Source: Escherichia coli
GTDB lineage: Bacteria; Pseudomonadota; Gammaproteobacteria; Enterobacterales; Enterobacteriaceae
NCBI RefSeq assembly: GCF_003334405.1
Contig: NZ_QOWM01000001.1
Strand: one strand, 5' to 3'
Length of the DNA: 64,000 bases
Shown: positions 57,343 through 63,013 of the stretch, one piece after another
Layout: each line of letters starts with the position of its first letter
How positions within the stretch are numbered: position 1 is the first letter of the stretch
Program-made: the position numbers and the translations under genes
The notes under the pieces: model-generated
The model's database searches: none
What the model saw: the letters and a program-made list of their open reading frames with translations, nothing else
What the model was told of the DNA's origin: nothing

Positions 57343-59040
57343 TCAAAGCAATAACGTAGCCTGTGAGGCGACTGGGGTGCGTTGGTTAGGAATGTAAAAC
57401 GCAATTTCCGTCCCCGGCTCCAGGCGGCGGATATGCAGCCCCTCGCCATACAATAACTTCACGCGATGATGGACATTCAGCAGGCCAATTTTATTGCCCG
57501 GCATTTCATTCGCTTCGACCCGCTCAATCACCTTTGGATCGATGCCGTGCCCGGTATCTCGCACCGCAATGCGTACCCGATTTCCGCACTCTGCAACGCT
57601 GATGGTGACAACGCCTTTACCTTTGCAAGGCTGAATACCGTGGACAATGGCGTTCTCCACCAACGGCTGGATCAGCAGGCTGGGAATGCAGCAATTCACC
57701 TCTTCATCAATATCATAGATAACCGTCAGCTTGTCACCAAAGCGGGCCTGCTCAATGGCAATATAGTCTTTAATTTGATACAGCTCTTTTTTGATATCGA
57801 TTTGCTCATCGTCTTTTAATTCAATGTTATAGCGCAGATAACGCGACAGATTAAAGATCAACTGGCGAGCGGTATCCGGATTCAGACGGATTGACGATGA
57901 AATAGCGTTCAGAGCGTTAAACAGAAAATGGGGATTAATTTTGCTTTGCAGGGCGCGAAGCTCTGCCTTATTTGCCATTTCACGTAGCTGCTCGGCGCGT
58001 GAAACCTCCAGTTGCGTGGAGATGATTTGCGACAGACCGACCGCCATTTCCTGTAATGACGAGGTGATCTGATGCGCGTGGCAGTAGTAAATTTTCAGCG
58101 TTCCGGTCACGACCCCTTTCTCCCACAATGGGATCACCAGCATGGAATGAATCTCTGGTGTGCGGTGGGCTTCATCATTGTTTTTAATGATGATTTTTCC
58201 GTAATTCATCGCCTGACGGGTAGTCGGGCTAATGAAGTCATCGCCATTCTGATAGTTATGTTCACCCACGCCAACATAGGCCAGCACATGATCGGTATTA
58301 GTAATCGCCACCGCATCGGCGTGAATGTCATCGCGGATAATTTCGCAGACCTTGCGTAATGACTCGCTATTGACATGGCGAAACAGCGGTAGCGTTTTGT
58401 TGGCGATATCCAGCGCCAGCTTGGCCTGCCGCGCGGCGCTGGCCTCTTTTTCGCCCTCAACGCTTTGCACCAGAAGCACAATAAAGCCGATACAGACGCT
58501 ACCGAGGATCATTGGAATGCCGATTTTAGAGACGATATCGATCCCCAACGCGGTAGTTGGTGCCCAGACAATTACCAGAATCATGGTCAACGTCTCACAC
58601 AACATGCCGCCGAGAATACCGACGCGCCAGCGCTGTGCTTTGGGGATTTTCAGGTTGATCCAGCCCGATATACAACCCGCCAGAATGCTGGTGATAAAGC
58701 AGGGGATCGCCGTCACGCCGCCGATATCAATTAAATACCGGTGAATACCCGCAATCACGCCGGTAATGATGCCTACCCACGGGCCAAACAGAATCCCGCC
58801 GGACATCACCGCGATAATACGTACGTTCACCAGCGAGCCTTCTACGGGAACGCCGGACCAGGTGCTGAACAGGGCGAACAGCGAGAAAATGGCGGTAACG
58901 GCGAGCAATTCTTTTGGGGAGTGCGCCGACTTGTGCAACAGTTCGCGAAACAGGCGGATACGGATGAGAAAGAACAGGCAGATAAGCATTAACGCTGCCC
59001 GATCGAAGACCGCCAGCAGCATGTTGAATATTTCGTGCAC
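57343..59040 (-). CDS. ypdA: LytS-type sensor histidine kinase YpdA (565 aa)
   Basis: N-terminal multi-TM 5TM-Lyt domain, GAF-like segment, His-kinase H-box region ([13 protein letters not shown]) and ATPase domain. Confidence 0.92.
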
Positions 59041-59415
59041 GGGTGACTCTGAATAAGGATTAAACCTCTATGATAGGTAACCTGAAGGCTGATGACCAGC
59101 AGGCCGTTTTTGAGGAAAAACCACAATTTTAAAATGGGATTGATAGATAAATGGTGTATTAGCAATGCATCTCTTGATAATGCACTTCTGGTTAGTAAAT
59201 TTATTGAAATTATTATGTTAATAAAATGAGTGGTAATTTTCTTGTTAGCGCAGATAAATTTCCTGTTTTTAAAGCAGAGTTCCTCATTTAACGTCATTAA
59301 TAAAATGTTCTAAAACGCTGGACAGACAGAAATTAATCAGGCTATTTTCAAAACAGCCACCATCGTGGCAGCGTCGCTCGGACGGTCCGGGCGCTAACGT
59401 TAATCTGAGGAAATT

Positions 59416-60654
59416 ATGGCTGACACTCGCCCTGAACGTCGCTTTACGCGCATTGATCGTCTCCCGCCCTACGTTTTTAACATCACCGCTGAACTGAAAA
59501 TGGCTGCGCGTCGGCGCGGCGAAGATATTATCGATTTCAGCATGGGTAACCCGGACGGTGCGACTCCGCCGCATATCGTCGAAAAATTATGTACTGTGGC
59601 CCAGCGCCCGGACACGCATGGTTACTCCACTTCACGCGGCATTCCGCGGTTACGTCGCGCCATTTCCCGCTGGTATCAGGATCGCTACGACGTTGAAATC
59701 GACCCGGAATCAGAAGCCATCGTCACTATTGGTTCGAAAGAGGGCCTGGCGCATCTGATGCTGGCGACGCTGGATCATGGTGACACGGTGCTGGTGCCGA
59801 ATCCAAGTTACCCGATCCATATTTATGGCGCGGTGATTGCCGGGGCGCAGGTACGCTCAGTGCCGCTGGTGGAAGGTGTCGATTTCTTCAACGAACTGGA
59901 GCGAGCCATTCGTGAAAGTTATCCGAAACCGAAGATGATGATCCTCGGCTTCCCGTCAAACCCAACCGCGCAATGCGTGGAACTGGAGTTCTTCGAAAAA
60001 GTAGTGGCGCTGGCGAAACGCTACGATGTGCTGGTGGTCCATGACCTGGCCTATGCCGATATCGTCTACGATGGCTGGAAAGCGCCGTCAATTATGCAGG
60101 TACCGGGTGCACGCGATGTGGCAGTCGAGTTCTTTACGCTGTCGAAAAGCTACAACATGGCGGGCTGGCGTATCGGCTTTATGGTTGGCAACAAAACGCT
60201 GGTCAGCGCCCTGGCTCGTATTAAAAGCTATCACGATTACGGCACCTTTACGCCGTTGCAGGTGGCGGCGATTGCGGCGCTGGAGGGCGATCAACAGTGC
60301 GTGCGCGACATTGCCGAACAGTACAAACGCCGCCGTGATGTATTGGTTAAAGGGCTGCATGAAGCGGGCTGGATGGTTGAAATGCCGAAGGCTTCGATGT
60401 ATGTCTGGGCGAAAATCCCGGAACCATATGCGGCCATGGGATCGCTGGAATTTGCCAAGAAGCTCCTTAACGAAGCGAAGGTTTGTGTCTCGCCGGGGAT
60501 TGGCTTTGGCGACTATGGTGATACGCATGTTCGCTTTGCACTGATTGAAAACCGCGACCGTATTCGTCAGGCCATCAGAGGGATTAAAGCGATGTTCCGT
60601 GCCGACGGTTTACTACCCGCCAGCAGCAAACATATTCACGAAAACGCGGAATAA
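59416..60654 (+). CDS. alaC: class I PLP aminotransferase, glutamate-pyruvate aminotransferase AlaC (412 aa)
   Basis: Aminotransferase fold with the PLP-lysine motif ([12 protein letters not shown]). Confidence 0.93.
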
Positions 60655-60673
60655 ACACCGTCGTCAGAAATGC

Positions 60674-60701
60674 AAACAGGAGCCTGATGGCTCCTGTTTT
60701 T
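60674..60701. terminator. bidirectional intrinsic terminator between alaC and ypdK
   Basis: Hairpin acaggagcc-tgat-ggctcctgt followed by T5. Confidence 0.7.
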
Positions 60702-60718
60702 CATTGCACAGTTTGCTT

Positions 60719-60790
60719 TTAGATCATCAGGGCAAAAGTACCGGCCCAAACGATGACCATAAAAGAAATGCCCATAAAGAAATATTTCAC
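60719..60790 (-). CDS. ypdK: small membrane protein YpdK (23 aa), GTG start
   Basis: Minus-strand frame GTG-AAA-TAT-TTC-TTT-ATG-GGC... encodes MKYFFMGISFMVIVWAGTFALMI; a single TM helix; below the ORF-track threshold. Confidence 0.65.
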   Translation of the reverse strand: MKYFFMGISFMVIVWAGTFALMI

Positions 60791-61145
60791 TTTACATCTC
60801 TCCGCGTAATTACTGTTACGCCTGAATGACTTCATTACACCTGATACAGTGAGTTGACACCGGGCAAAGCGACCTTAAAAGCCCTGTATTTTACCGTGGG
60901 CATCACCCCAGAATTCTGAGCTAAACTGCTCGAGACGGCGCTAATGTACGCCTAAAACTGAAACGAGACAAGAGGCATTTTCTTATTTACTTTTAGTAAC
61001 TTACAAGTGTCTCATATCGGCGACAGTTTAATTTCTGACGGTAATAATTAGATATTCAGCGAAGGAAAAAACCTTAAGAAAAAAGCCATAAAAACCATGA
61101 GGTTATTATGGCCGATTTGAGGAGGGAAAGAGTAAGAGCAGTTTG

Positions 61146-62066
61146 TTAAATGTACAACGACGATTCTCCCACCGGGCGCGTTTTAAAGCGACGGTGGATC
61201 CAGAGGTACTGCTCCGGTGCGCGCATGATCTCTTTCTCGATAATCTTGTTCATATAGGCAGCGGCTTGATTTTCATCTGTCGGGTAGCCTTCCATCTCTG
61301 GGGTGATGAACAAACGATATCCGCTGTAATCCGCTTTTCTTACCATCGTTACGGTCAACATGGCTGCGCCAGAGAGACGGGAGAGAACATAGGTGCCATT
61401 GGTTGTGGCGACATTTTCCACCGCAAAGAACGGCGCGAAGGAGCTGCCTTTACGACCATAATCCTGATCGGGAGCAAACCATACCGCTTCACCTTTCTTC
61501 AGTGCACCGACAATGCCGCGCAGATTATTTCTGCCGATCATCGCTTTGTTAGAGCGCATGCGCCCACGGGTCTGCACCCATTCCATCAGCTGATTATTAT
61601 GTGGACGATAGGTAGCCATCATTGGTTGGCACAGTCCCATCACGCGGCCGCCCAGTTCCAGCGACATAAAATGGACGCCGACAACCATTACGCCGCGATT
61701 TTGCATTTGTGCGCGTTTAAGGTTATCCAACCCTTCAACATCAAACCATTTACGTACGCGACTGTCGGGCCAGAACCATGCCATGCCGGTTTCTACCAGC
61801 GCCATGCCGAGTGAACGAAAGTTTTCGGCAATCATCTTCTCGCGTTCTTCCGCAGAATGCTGCGGGAAACAAAGTTCCAGGTTTTTACGGGCGATAGATT
61901 CACGACGTTTCAGGAATGGTCGCGCCATTGCGCCAATACGCGTGCCGAGAAAGCAGAGAACAGGATAAGGAAGCTGTACCCAAAGCCAGAGTACACCAAG
62001 CCCAAACCATGTGAGCCAGTAGCGAGGATGTAGAAACTCGCGGGAAAATTTGCATTGTGGAAACAT
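61146..62066 (-). CDS. lpxP: lipid A palmitoleoyl-ACP acyltransferase LpxP (306 aa)
   Basis: HtrB/LpxL-family acyltransferase; start at MFPQCKFSREF...; the track ORF is extended 22 codons upstream. Confidence 0.9.
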   Translation of the reverse strand: MFPQCKFSREFLHPRYWLTWFGLGVLWLWVQLPYPVLCFLGTRIGAMARPFLKRRESIARKNLELCFPQHSAEEREKMIAENFRSLGMALVETGMAWFWPDSRVRKWFDVEGLDNLKRAQMQNRGVMVVGVHFMSLELGGRVMGLCQPMMATYRPHNNQLMEWVQTRGRMRSNKAMIGRNNLRGIVGALKKGEAVWFAPDQDYGRKGSSFAPFFAVENVATTNGTYVLSRLSGAAMLTVTMVRKADYSGYRLFITPEMEGYPTDENQAAAYMNKIIEKEIMRAPEQYLWIHRRFKTRPVGESSLYI

Positions 62067-62418
62067 AGTTACCTTCTGTAGATACGAATTGTTGTATCGC
62101 AGAAGATTCCATGTCGACAGCGGTACACTCAATTGGTTGGGCCATCATGTACGACAATGGTTCCTGTAAAGAGTGTAAAGACTAGTCAGGACATAACCAC
62201 GAGGAGCATGAAGGCGGTATCTGTACTTTATCACTCGCTGACTGCTTTCAGCTACTGATTATTAATCGTGCAAAGTAAATATTTTTCCGTACACAACAGT
62301 CTTGCATTTAACATGCTGTTTTCATTGATGCTTAGCAAAAATTGCCAGAGGTTAAGGATTGTCTTACTATTAAAGTGACTGAAGTTACAGGTTTTTTAGC
62401 GCGGCAGGAGGTTGAGCT

Positions 62419-62661
62419 ATGATTAATTTATGGATGTTTCTCGCCCTGTGTATTGTCTGCGTAAGCGGCTACATCGGTCAGGTACTGAACGTGGTATCGG
62501 CGGTCTCTTCTTTCTTCGGCATGGTGATCCTCGCTGCACTCATTTATTACTTCACCATGTGGTTAACTGGCGGTAATGAACTAGTGACGGGGATATTTAT
62601 GTTTCTTGCCCCGGCTTGTGGCTTGATGATTCGCTTTATGGTGGGGTATGGCAGGCGGTAG
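62419..62661 (+). CDS. yfdY: small membrane protein YfdY (80 aa)
   Basis: 80-aa ORF with two hydrophobic helices. Confidence 0.75.
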   Translation: MINLWMFLALCIVCVSGYIGQVLNVVSAVSSFFGMVILAALIYYFTMWLTGGNELVTGIFMFLAPACGLMIRFMVGYGRR

Positions 62662-62737
62662 TGGGTCAGGATGGCTCATTTGGGCAGGTGTTCACATCAG
62701 CATCAGACATGATTGTTCACCTGCCATGTGAAAGACG

Positions 62738-63013
62738 CTATCGCACAGGATGAATAAGATAATTCGCCTTTGTCGGAAAAGGGGGCGGCATTTCTTCTGT
62801 GAGGTTTAATGGTGGCGCATCTTCTCTCATCTTAAACAAAATCGCCTGTGATGGCTGAAGTTTTGTAGAGTGTGTGGTCGTCATCGCTGATGTTTTTTCA
62901 GTCTCTTTATAGCTCCTCTCACTTCCACCACCCGAAATGGAAAATGCAAAAACATTGCATGCCATAATAGAGACCAATAAAAATAAGCTGAAAAGTATTA
63001 AGTTTACTTTCAT
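62738..63013 (-). CDS. ypdI: small lipoprotein YpdI (91 aa)
   Basis: Signal peptide with lipobox-like MAC (LLVSIMACNVF); AT-rich. Confidence 0.75.
   Translation of the reverse strand: MKVNLILFSLFLLVSIMACNVFAFSISGGGSERSYKETEKTSAMTTTHSTKLQPSQAILFKMREDAPPLNLTEEMPPPFPTKANYLIHPVR

Follow-up and report, generated by a model that had tools for sequence, protein, structure and literature searches.

A predicted promoter with a conserved upstream block and a structured leader for the small gene ypdK between alaC and lpxP of Escherichia coli

The 491-bp interval separating alaC from lpxP in Escherichia coli (positions 60655-61145 of the window, the whole 64,000-nucleotide stretch of contig NZ_QOWM01000001.1, assembly GCF_003334405.1, that was analyzed) is probably a composite of ordinary gene parts: the alaC/ypdK and lpxP terminators, the small gene ypdK, its promoter and its folded leader. 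The original prediction had seen no other assigned feature in this stretch; it is nevertheless not featureless, about 160 bp of it (roughly 61063-60905) being nearly invariant across seven genera. That the window belongs to E. coli is borne out by matches in 5423 of 5426 complete genomes. The ypdK promoter, the block upstream of it and the structured leader appear to be undescribed so far in the literature searched. The general view of bacterial gene organization is unchanged by these findings; for ypdK they now offer a precise and testable predicted promoter.

The interval is bordered by alaC (59416-60654, plus strand; sequence and RefSeq annotation) and by lpxP (minus strand, ending at 61146; open reading frame list and RefSeq annotation). 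ypdK and lpxP are both minus-strand genes, so that alaC and lpxP face each other with their 3' ends. The announced length of about 490 bp and the AT-richness were accurate, the G+C content being 41.3% in 60655-61145 against 51.6% in the whole window. The absence of any other assigned feature holds for RefSeq, where the 355 bp leading from the lpxP stop codon to the start of ypdK are left unannotated, but not for EcoCyc, where the sRNA candidate tpke70 extends 64 nt into the interval. A literature search returned nothing joining lpxP with sRNA and RIL-seq, or lpxP with alaC. Regulatory DNA had been expected here on the grounds that lpxP is cold-induced; the suspicion was reasonable and the reason wrong, the conserved DNA being that of ypdK. 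Because lpxP is on the minus strand and alaC converges with it, the interval lies 3' of lpxP and leaves no room for its cold-shock promoter. The lpxP promoter is located on the opposite side of the gene, from 62070 onward, so that the cold induction of lpxP is uninformative on positions 60655-61145, and the assumed tie between the two is corrected here. A sigma-S ChIP-seq paper deals with that promoter beyond lpxP.

Both genes transcribed on the minus strand end at intrinsic terminators, each composed of a G+C-rich hairpin and a U tract into which, in the available part of the Term-seq tables, a published RNA 3' end falls. The alaC terminator that had been proposed was recovered, from sequence and fold, as a bidirectional hairpin at 60674-60701 serving alaC on the plus strand and ypdK on the minus strand. 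Its stem (AAACAGGAGCC/GGCTCCTGTTT, loop TGAT) is followed by a T-run on the plus strand and by TTTGCATTT on the minus strand, and in four species the stem underwent the compensatory change GGAGCC/GGCTCC to GGCGCC/GGCGCC. Symmetric, G+C-rich and flanked by an A-run and a T-run, it is typical of the bidirectional terminators of convergent genes and displays no difference from them. The 'primary' 3' end assigned to ypdK in the accessible Term-seq entries, MG1655 2497040(+), corresponds to window position 60671. The lpxP terminator folds at 61079-61112 on the minus strand (GCCAUAAUAACC...GGUUUUUAUGGC followed by U6), and the 3' end given for lpxP in the same entries, MG1655 2496632(+), falls on window position 61079, the final U of the tract. 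Other genera carry a different hairpin at this position. The lpxP and ypdK 3' ends are the only ones found here in the available Term-seq tables, with none between them and none on the other strand.

The 23-codon, GTG-initiated ypdK gene announced earlier (60719-60790, minus strand, 23 codons and a stop) is present in the open reading frame list and in the RefSeq annotation. Its Shine-Dalgarno sequence GGAG (60800-60803, minus strand), 9 nt before the GTG, is invariant in 27 of 27 aligned sequences. The peptide, (V/M)KYFFMGISFMVIVWAGTFALMI, is identical or nearly so across 26 species: no residue differs between Escherichia, Citrobacter and Salmonella, and the other genera of the clade retain 65-83% identity. 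Its orthologues carry the Pfam domain PF28022 (YpdK), measure about 23-24 residues and share the KYFxMG...WxGTF pattern, and nucleotide changes concentrate at third codon positions, with 4/2/15 variable columns per codon position. The corresponding figures for the nearly invariant stretch of about 160 bp are 33/26/21, without shared open reading frame or codon periodicity. The membrane-protein status of YpdK is taken from the RefSeq and EcoCyc annotations. E. coli genes for small membrane proteins that possess a promoter and leader of their own form a class reportedly described by Hemm, Storz and colleagues; YpdK, a single helix of 23-24 residues with the K-Y-F-x-M-G...W-x-G-T-F signature in a separate intergenic transcription unit, is as a gene no different from this class.

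A sigma-70 promoter is predicted for ypdK at 60937-60971 on the minus strand (MG1655 2496740-2496768) on the basis of positional conservation. It consists of a -35 hexamer TTGTCT (60971-60966), a 17-bp spacer, a -10 hexamer TACATT (60948-60943) and a G+C-rich discriminator AGCGCC (60942-60937). Among promoter-like sites it ranked first for positional conservation, being found in 27 of 27 sequences with a mean score of 11.2 bits and a minimum of 8.9, and all 27 conform to TTGTCw-17-TACATT. Beyond this set, TAnATTAGC and a TTGTnn-like hexamer 17-18 bp upstream are kept in Buttiauxella, Cedecea and Serratia, and TAnATTAGC alone in Pantoea-like and Erwinia loci; this -10 core thus precedes ypdK from Escherichia to Serratia/Erwinia, including genera where lpxP is not a neighbor. 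A consensus promoter scan missed the site because its -10 fits the consensus at only 4 of 6 positions. The output of the same scan, a plus-strand promoter-like site (GCGACA-17-AATAAT) and a single weak hairpin, did not exceed that of shuffled sequences; the former was dropped in favor of the positionally conserved sites since by eye it reads AATAAA in Enterobacter and is not kept. From the position of the ypdK promoter we infer a transcription start at 60935-60937 (MG1655 2496774-2496776). The portions of the Romero 2014, Cappable-seq and SMRT-Cappable-seq supplements that were available contain no start site matching it.

Promoters of the rrnB P1 type are under stringent control, and the rrnB P1 discriminator is GCGCCACC. 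The ypdK promoter resembles this type by its near-consensus -35, its A/T-rich upstream stretch and the GCGCC right after the -10, the AGCGCC discriminator and the upstream tract being both present and conserved; it differs by its -10, TACATT rather than TATAAT, and by a spacer of 17-18 bp rather than 16. The resemblance may serve as a lead.

Immediately upstream of the promoter lies a conserved non-coding block of about 90 bp (60972-61063, minus strand), recognized by cross-genus conservation. It comprises an A/T-rich UP-like stretch (60972-60999), the sequence GACACTTGTAAGTT (61011-60998), an inverted repeat TGTC-N10-GACA (61025-61008) and the conserved motifs ATTATTAC (61048-61041) and TTCGCT (61063-61058). 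The block is near-invariant in Escherichia, Salmonella, Citrobacter, Enterobacter, Lelliottia, Leclercia and Pseudenterobacter; the repeat and CTTGT abut the -35 in Cedecea and Buttiauxella. In E. coli it is single copy and unannotated (5423 genomes). Little RNA structure was detected in it on either strand, and since the arms of the inverted repeat never vary, an RNA hairpin and a DNA site are here indistinguishable. An invariant 19-mer of the conserved DNA is found 128-165 nt before the ypdK start in 26 species, the distance being 161-165 nt in 22 of the 26 loci and shorter where the leader has a deletion. In Citrobacter, about 640 bp and an extra gene separate this DNA from lpxP, yet the distance to ypdK is kept at 162-165 nt. 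The conserved regulatory DNA can therefore be assigned to ypdK, both because of this constant distance despite the Citrobacter insertion and because the -10 core precedes ypdK in genera without lpxP nearby. The conservation 5' of the -35 exceeds the needs of a plain promoter.

Several candidate sites in this region were rejected. A sigma-54 promoter is suggested by the Enterobacter sequence TGGCAACAGGAAAGCA, with correct GG/GC spacing, but by eye the GG is replaced by CG in E. coli, and one base is missing in most Citrobacter sequences and in S. arizonae. In a comparison with consensus sequences, no conserved match was observed for sigma-E, sigma-32, the LexA box, CRP, Ter, the DnaA box or IHF, nor for CpxR, PmrA, the RcsB box or the YpdB/PyrR repeat GGCATTTCAT. 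The closest candidates were the RcsAB-like TAAGAAAATGCCTC, which agrees at 11 of 14 positions and is not conserved, and the CRP-like TGTGATCAAAAACACA, which occurs only in Serratia; both may serve as leads.

The predicted ypdK leader, delimited by the position of the promoter, extends over about 146 nt (60791-60936, minus strand) and contains two conserved helices. The larger domain, P1 (60851-60909), is closed by a 10-pair helix (60909-60899 with 60861-60851) enclosing a variable apical part (60898-60862), and deletions of the latter in five species leave the helix intact. In P1, the paired cells amount to 95%; at pair 40/84, 13 sequences have CG and 13 have UA, and at pair 38/86, 11 have AU, nine UA, three UG and one CG. 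The smaller hairpin, P3 (60804-60821, GCGUAA-CAGUAA-UUACGC), directly abuts the Shine-Dalgarno sequence; 90% of its cells are paired, with G-C, G-U and A-U exchanges (RNAalifold and pair counts), and Buttiauxella, Cedecea and 'Klebsiella sp. BIGb0407' possess a hairpin with another stem sequence at the same place. Together, P1 and P3 show pairing in 93.3% of cells and a covariation score of 0.345, which 0 of 500 shuffles reach; with slid partners the pairing drops to 30-47% and the score to 0.097 at most. Eight pairs are changed on both sides, as expected of a structured leader. The covarying changes of P1 largely track two clades and thus represent few independent events. This selection at the RNA level downstream of the promoter implies that the region is transcribed on the minus strand. 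Folded as a single sequence, the E. coli leader is not unusually stable (z = -0.86). A 'thermometer' hairpin sequestering the Shine-Dalgarno sequence (GGAGAGAUGU with AUAUUUCUUU) is predicted in E. coli and Citrobacter and is not claimed here because it is not predicted in Enterobacter or Pseudenterobacter. An 18-bp palindrome, AGCTCAGAATTCTGGGGT (consensus AGCNCAGAATTCTGAGCT; 60905-60922, minus strand), occupies about +15 to +32 relative to the predicted start and overlaps the 5' strand of P1 by its 3' end. Its CAGAATTC and flanking bases are invariant in the 27 sequences of the Escherichia-Enterobacter clade, and it is missing from Cedecea, Buttiauxella and Serratia. It could be either an operator or an alternative hairpin, and our guess is that the leader helices control translation initiation or mRNA stability.

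These elements suggest the following arrangement. On the minus strand, lpxP transcription stops at its intrinsic terminator, with a 3' end at 61079, and about 140 bp beyond it ypdK would be transcribed from its own sigma-70 promoter (TTGTCT-17-TACATT-AGCGCC), preceded by the A/T-rich UP-like stretch and, farther 5', by TGTC-N10-GACA, which probably binds a transcription factor. The transcript would start with a leader of about 146 nt, containing the 10-pair helix that closes the variable domain and the small hairpin against the Shine-Dalgarno sequence, continue with the GTG-initiated 23-codon YpdK frame, and end, with a 3' end at 60671, at the hairpin that is also the alaC terminator. With a precisely placed predicted promoter, a predicted start, two leader helices and a candidate operator, the regulation of ypdK becomes directly approachable.

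Other readings of the same DNA would place an additional RNA or peptide in the interval. It is highly improbable that the conserved promoter gives rise to a separate minus-strand sRNA ending short of ypdK, or that extra micro-ORFs are translated, readings that take up the small RNA or further micro-ORFs not excluded in the original prediction. The variable leader segment of Enterobacter, Citrobacter and Salmonella does hold a hairpin with U-rich sequence after it (AACGGGAAA-AUUCUCA-UUUCCGUUUU), but E. coli has only a degenerate version and five species have lost it by deletion, whereas the helix around it and the hairpin farther 3' persist up to the Shine-Dalgarno sequence. No 3' end within the leader figures in the available Term-seq data. 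Similarly, E. coli contains an open reading frame of 22-23 codons at 60835-60906 (minus strand) with GAGG before its start, but it has five codons in several Citrobacter and 20 in S. arizonae, is absent in Enterobacter and ranges from 0 to 32 codons between species, at odds with a conserved small protein. An upstream frame after GAGGUG (60903) is not conserved, and the current MG1655 annotation, recently found small proteins included, lists nothing here. A permissive Rfam search of 59000-63000 yielded chance matches only, the best being a plastid family with 23.5 bits (E = 0.25), for which the gathering score is 65.6. With no Rfam match, no conserved open reading frame or periodicity and two RNA 3' ends only in the accessible Term-seq entries, a further sRNA or micro-ORF finds no support. 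The same entries come close to a situation in which only the ypdK mRNA and the lpxP 3' end are transcribed, with low-level antisense RNA possible. The tpke70 annotation (EcoCyc G0-8906, the name also used in the Term-seq tables consulted) covers 436 nt on the plus strand (61082-61517), the first 64 of them (61082-61145) in the interval. Tpke70 is reportedly an sRNA candidate out of a comparative-genomics screen of 2001. It lies antisense to lpxP, over the terminator and the 3' part of the coding sequence, and RefSeq does not carry it. The 436-nt Tpke70 sequence in a published supplement begins with AAAGCCATAAAAACCATGAGG, window position 61082 (+), confirming its identity (PMC6172242). It overlaps the interval only at 61082-61145 (+); most of it runs opposite the lpxP coding sequence, and the conserved block lies outside it. 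The EcoCyc entry appears poorly supported. One could nevertheless consider that 61000-61063 represents the promoter and 5' part of a plus-strand RNA that was the basis of 'Tpke70' and modulates lpxP mRNA; this is quite unlikely. A weak candidate divergent promoter, GAGACA-17-TACTTT (60965-60993, plus strand; predicted start near 61000), oriented toward tpke70 and the lpxP 3' end, belongs to the second-best positionally conserved promoter-like site (GAGACA/GTGACA-17-TAnTTT), the plus strand folds better than shuffles at 60998-61125 (z = -2.7), later studies treat the EcoCyc entry as an sRNA, and in the C. freundii complex this side of the block and the plus-strand site face an inserted divergent LprI-like gene. 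However, the site scores 5.5 bits in E. coli against 10.2 in Enterobacter, the stretch from the block to lpxP is not conserved, Enterobacter lacks a plus-strand terminator, no plus-strand 3' end is found in the available Term-seq tables, the tpke70 entry, of computational origin, begins 80 nt downstream of the predicted start, and the invariant arms of the inverted repeat do not tell an RNA hairpin from a DNA site. The RNA so proposed would cross the terminator of lpxP and the 3' part of its coding sequence in antisense orientation.

A different proposal supplements, rather than replaces, the assignment of the conserved DNA to a ypdK promoter and leader. FabR is a TetR-family repressor of unsaturated fatty-acid synthesis, and lpxP encodes a palmitoleoyl transferase; binding of FabR to the block and repression of ypdK, which would connect YpdK with lipid homeostasis, can be entertained as a tentative possibility. 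In S. Typhimurium, ChIP-chip and ChIP-qPCR located FabR at the ddg(lpxP)/yfdZ(alaC) intergenic region under three conditions, a signal that the authors dismissed, without mention of ypdK, only because the flanking genes converge (PMC4804515). The qPCR amplicon covers the 3' half of ypdK together with the terminator, which puts it about 190-260 bp away from the predicted -10. The core motif of that study, ACAnnTGTnnnnT, fits GACACTTGTAAGTT at 61011-60998; GGCGTACA, overlapping the ypdK -10, has exactly the sequence of the left half-site in the fabB operator; and the 18-bp palindrome AGCNCAGAATTCTGAGCT has the length and outer AGC/GCT of FabR operators. Compared with the operators of fabA, fabB and yqfA/trhA, the ypdK region thus offers a perfect half-site (GGCGTACA), a good opposite one (TGTAAGTT), a palindrome of 18 bp with the same outer bases and an orthologous Salmonella region occupied by FabR in vivo (PMC4804515). 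Unlike these operators, it has no full palindrome, its half-sites are 58 bp apart, and its half-site overlaps the -10 whereas theirs fill the promoter spacer. With a matrix built on the fabA, fabB and yqfA sites, operators score 21.4-24.9 bits and the best site of the interval 6.5, a level around which 54 positions of the 64-kb window are found (6 bits or more); neither a canonical operator nor the 18-bp palindrome AGCGTACA-NN-TGTWMGCT is present in the interval. Moreover, Enterobacter and E. albertii have CGT where the proposed core has TGT, and in more distant genera GCGTACA becomes GAGTACA, GCGTAAA or AGGTAGA when TAnATTAGC stays unchanged, so that the conserved unit looks like a -10 and not like a FabR half-site. 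The FabR ChIP list also consists mostly of tRNA and ribosomal-protein promoters (PMC4804515), and the signal observed here could reflect just a very active promoter. A more complete module, in which FabR or a factor recognizing TGTC-N10-GACA controls the ypdK promoter and the leader helices gate translation, linking the peptide to membrane-lipid status, is rather unlikely as a whole; the gating would possibly depend on temperature or growth rate. If true, it would account for the Salmonella FabR ChIP signal that its authors thought functionless: with a promoter present between lpxP and alaC, a FabR site there need not be so.

The interval between alaC and lpxP (60655-61145) is real, and almost its whole length can now be explained by ordinary parts: two terminators, the gene of a small protein, the promoter of this gene with regulatory DNA upstream, and a structured leader. 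A 601-bp query around the interval matches 5423 of 5426 complete genomes of Escherichia coli, the species of the window, with 95-100% identity; in E. coli NCTC9040, an IS1 element lies within this stretch (NZ_LR134247.1 1419106-1420482, hit H1). The G+C content of the interval (491 bp) is 41.3%, against 51.6% for the window. Since alaC (59416-60654) is encoded on the plus strand and lpxP (61146-62069) on the minus strand, the two genes are convergent and the interval is situated 3' of lpxP; ypdK (60719-60790, minus strand) lies downstream of lpxP on the same strand. Regulatory DNA had been expected here from the cold induction of lpxP, which has the geometry wrong: the promoter of lpxP is found beyond 62070, and its sigma-E/sigma-S promoter is placed between yfdY and lpxP in a sigma-S ChIP-seq paper. 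The original prediction that the interval, ypdK and the alaC terminator apart, carries no assigned feature holds for RefSeq, where the 355 bp from the lpxP stop to the ypdK start are devoid of annotation, but not for EcoCyc, which lists the small RNA candidate tpke70 here. The conserved core is unannotated in 10 of 10 sampled E. coli genomes.

The lpxP terminator, a minus-strand hairpin (61112-61085) with a U6 tract following the lpxP stop, is recognized from its fold and from the published 3' end of lpxP, MG1655 2496632, which corresponds to window 61079, the last U of the tract (Term-seq, Adams et al. 2021). A symmetric hairpin between an A-run and a T-run (60674-60699) is the terminator of both plus-strand alaC and minus-strand ypdK. 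For ypdK, the 3' end rated 'primary' (MG1655 2497040; Term-seq, Adams et al. 2021) falls at 60671, and in the alignment the stem shows the compensatory change of GGAGCC/GGCTCC to GGCGCC/GGCGCC in four species. Among the Term-seq 3' ends listed, none occurs between 61079 and 60671 and none on the opposite strand. Around the locus, a 3' end at about 62151 (minus; MG1655 2495560 +), in the 5' UTR of lpxP and 85 nt before its start codon, suggests that transcription ends prematurely, or that the RNA is processed, in the leader of this cold-induced gene. The top-scoring end among those listed around the locus (about 65,000) maps near 59404 (plus; MG1655 2498307 -), in the alaC 5' UTR, 12 nt before the start codon.

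Loci were gathered by an LpxP scan, with one genome per species, and lpxP-ypdK-alaC synteny was found in 26 of them, belonging to Escherichia, Salmonella, Citrobacter, Enterobacter, Lelliottia, Leclercia and Pseudenterobacter. The DNA adjoining the lpxP terminator is unalignable between genera, and beyond it a stretch of about 160 bp (61063-60905) is almost invariant across them; within this block, which is single copy in E. coli, all but two positions of the 23-nt stretch TTAGGCGTACATTAGCGCCGTCT are invariant. The block is non-coding, because its variable columns are distributed by phase as 33/26/21, with no bias like that of ypdK (4/2/15), and because it holds no ORF common to the genera. 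The further micro-ORFs that had been left open for the interval find no support. A conserved 19-mer precedes the ypdK start by 128-165 nt in the 26 loci and by 161-165 nt in 22 of them, the shorter distances being those of the four species with part of the leader deleted. In seven Citrobacter species, the gene of an LprI-like lipoprotein of 204 residues separates lpxP from the block and the spacing to ypdK is kept. Since this spacing holds even with a gene inserted on the lpxP side, the block belongs, by comparison of loci, to ypdK. The insert of the C. freundii complex encodes a putative lipoprotein (LprI domain PF07007, E = 3.7e-5; L005 4963-5577, also L006-L009, L011 and L012) and separates the lpxP terminator from the block, in divergent orientation to ypdK.

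Sigma-70-type sites were scored at the same alignment position across all 27 sequences. A clear top site emerged on the ypdK strand, TTGTCT-17 bp-TACATT (mean 11.2 bits, minimum 8.9), with the -35 at 60971-60966 (TTGTCA in Enterobacter) and the -10 at 60948-60943 (minus strand). From this site, the ypdK transcript is predicted to start near 60936 (MG1655 2496775) with a leader of about 146 nt. Outside the clade, the promoter was tested on fetched loci of AlaC relatives from Buttiauxella, Cedecea, 'Klebsiella sp. BIGb0407', Serratia, Pantoea-like genomes and Erwinia. There, ypdK (Pfam PF28022) is found shortly after the end of alaC, on the other strand, and in most of these loci the two genes are directly convergent; lpxP is absent and the upstream neighbours vary. 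In every one of them, TAnATTAGC precedes the ypdK start codon by 66-190 nt, and in Buttiauxella, Cedecea, 'Klebsiella sp. BIGb0407' and Serratia it is preceded by TTGTnn 17-18 bp upstream and followed by GCC. The -10 hexamer varies solely at its third base, where a -10 is least constrained, and the predicted ypdK promoter is well supported by this comparison. AGCGCC directly follows the -10 and a conserved A/T-rich tract lies upstream of the -35, a layout which presumably resembles that of rrn P1-type promoters under stringent control. Further upstream, the inverted repeat TGTC-N10-GACA (61025-61008), with invariant arms, a variable spacer and CTTGT behind it, looks like a candidate transcription-factor site; repeat and CTTGT adjoin the -35 in Cedecea and Buttiauxella, and the Escherichia-Enterobacter clade apparently has about 37 bp extra between repeat and promoter. 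Inspection of the promoter and upstream DNA by eye found no conserved fit to the consensus of sigma-54, LexA, CRP, RcsB, CpxR, PmrA, IHF, DnaA, Ter or YpdB.

RNAalifold, run on 14 and then on 27 sequences, predicted two minus-strand helices in the leader: P1 (60909-60899 with 60861-60851), enclosing a variable apical part, and P3 (60821-60816 with 60809-60804), abutting the Shine-Dalgarno GGAG. Five genomes have lost the apical part of P1 (L003 5135-5262; L017, L021, L022, L026) by independently sized deletions and kept its closing helix. On the full alignment, 93.3% of the pairs are standard against 30-47% with slid partners, eight pairs have changed on both sides, and the covariation score reaches 0.345, slid partners giving 0.097 at most; none of 500 shuffles reached the observed values. 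These covarying changes mostly split two clades and hence represent few independent events. Buttiauxella, Cedecea and 'Klebsiella sp. BIGb0407' carry a hairpin of other stem sequence at the position of P3. The helices show that transcription on the ypdK strand enters this DNA from a point upstream of 60909, in agreement with the predicted promoter. The E. coli and Citrobacter leaders are predicted to form a hairpin sequestering the Shine-Dalgarno sequence; this hairpin is missing from the Enterobacter prediction, for which reason no thermosensor is claimed. The 18-bp palindrome AGCNCAGAATTCTGAGCT (60922-60905, about +15 to +32 of the predicted transcript), invariant inside the clade and missing outside, may serve as an operator or fold into a hairpin that competes with P1.

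The small RNA allowed for in the original prediction is unlikely as an independent minus-strand transcript ending before ypdK: the sole terminator-like hairpin there belongs to the apical part of P1, which is dispensable, and no 3' end is mapped to it among those listed. On the plus strand, the Term-seq tables label the lpxP terminator 'antisense to tpke70' (Adams et al. 2021). The candidate originates from a 2001 computational screen, and its 436-nt sequence (supplement, PMC6172242) corresponds to window 61082-61517, plus strand, mostly antisense to the lpxP coding sequence, with 64 nt inside the interval. A second, weaker promoter-like site, positionally conserved on this strand (GAGACA-17-TACTTT, start near 61000), might give rise to an antisense RNA over the 3' end of lpxP, perhaps the basis of tpke70. 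In the C. freundii complex, the inserted gene lies on the side to which this site points. The site scores only 5.5 bits in E. coli, and no plus-strand 3' end figures among those listed.

For the ypdK promoter itself, control by FabR, the TetR-family repressor of unsaturated fatty-acid synthesis, is a possibility that we consider rather improbable. In Salmonella Typhimurium, FabR was detected under three conditions by ChIP-chip and ChIP-qPCR in the intergenic region of ddg and yfdZ, and a regulatory role was thought unlikely since the two genes converge, ypdK going unmentioned (PMC4804515). The positions of the qPCR primers, in the 3' half of ypdK and its terminator, correspond to window 60687-60755, and the ypdK promoter is a plausible target for this binding. 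One perfect FabR half-site, GGCGTACA, overlies the -10, but it decays in distant genera where the -10 is kept. The best site of the interval reaches 6.5 bits, a level attained 54 times in the window, against 21-25 for the E. coli fabA, fabB and yqfA operators from which the matrix was built. The signal may instead reflect a very active promoter, tRNA and ribosomal-protein promoters dominating the same ChIP list (PMC4804515), and the sequence argues only weakly for FabR control. The FabR target yqfA (MG1655 b2899; L085 4490-5149), whose site reads AGCTAACAGGTGTTCACT, is now annotated trhA, 'transmembrane homeostasis protein A'. The conserved ypdK promoter and leader are a fresh example of a familiar kind of element; they appear undescribed in the literature searched and merit a small follow-up, above all given the FabR observation.

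The ypdK start codon (60788-60790) is GTG in all loci examined bar one, Serratia having ATG, and synonymous sites of codons 2-5 are invariant in 26 of 27 sequences. The GUG is preceded in E. coli and E. albertii, at a distance of 7 nt, by a start-stop pair, AUG-UAA (60791-60797, minus); in other genera, the ORF opened by this AUG is out of frame, or in frame in C. amalonaticus and Leclercia. Adjacency of lpxP to ypdK is limited to one clade. The order pyrS/pyrR (LytS-type kinase, LytTR regulator)-alaC-ypdK is kept from Escherichia to Erwinia (L086-L094; window 57343-60790), and YpdK, a small membrane peptide kept beside a sensor-kinase locus, may be a modulator.
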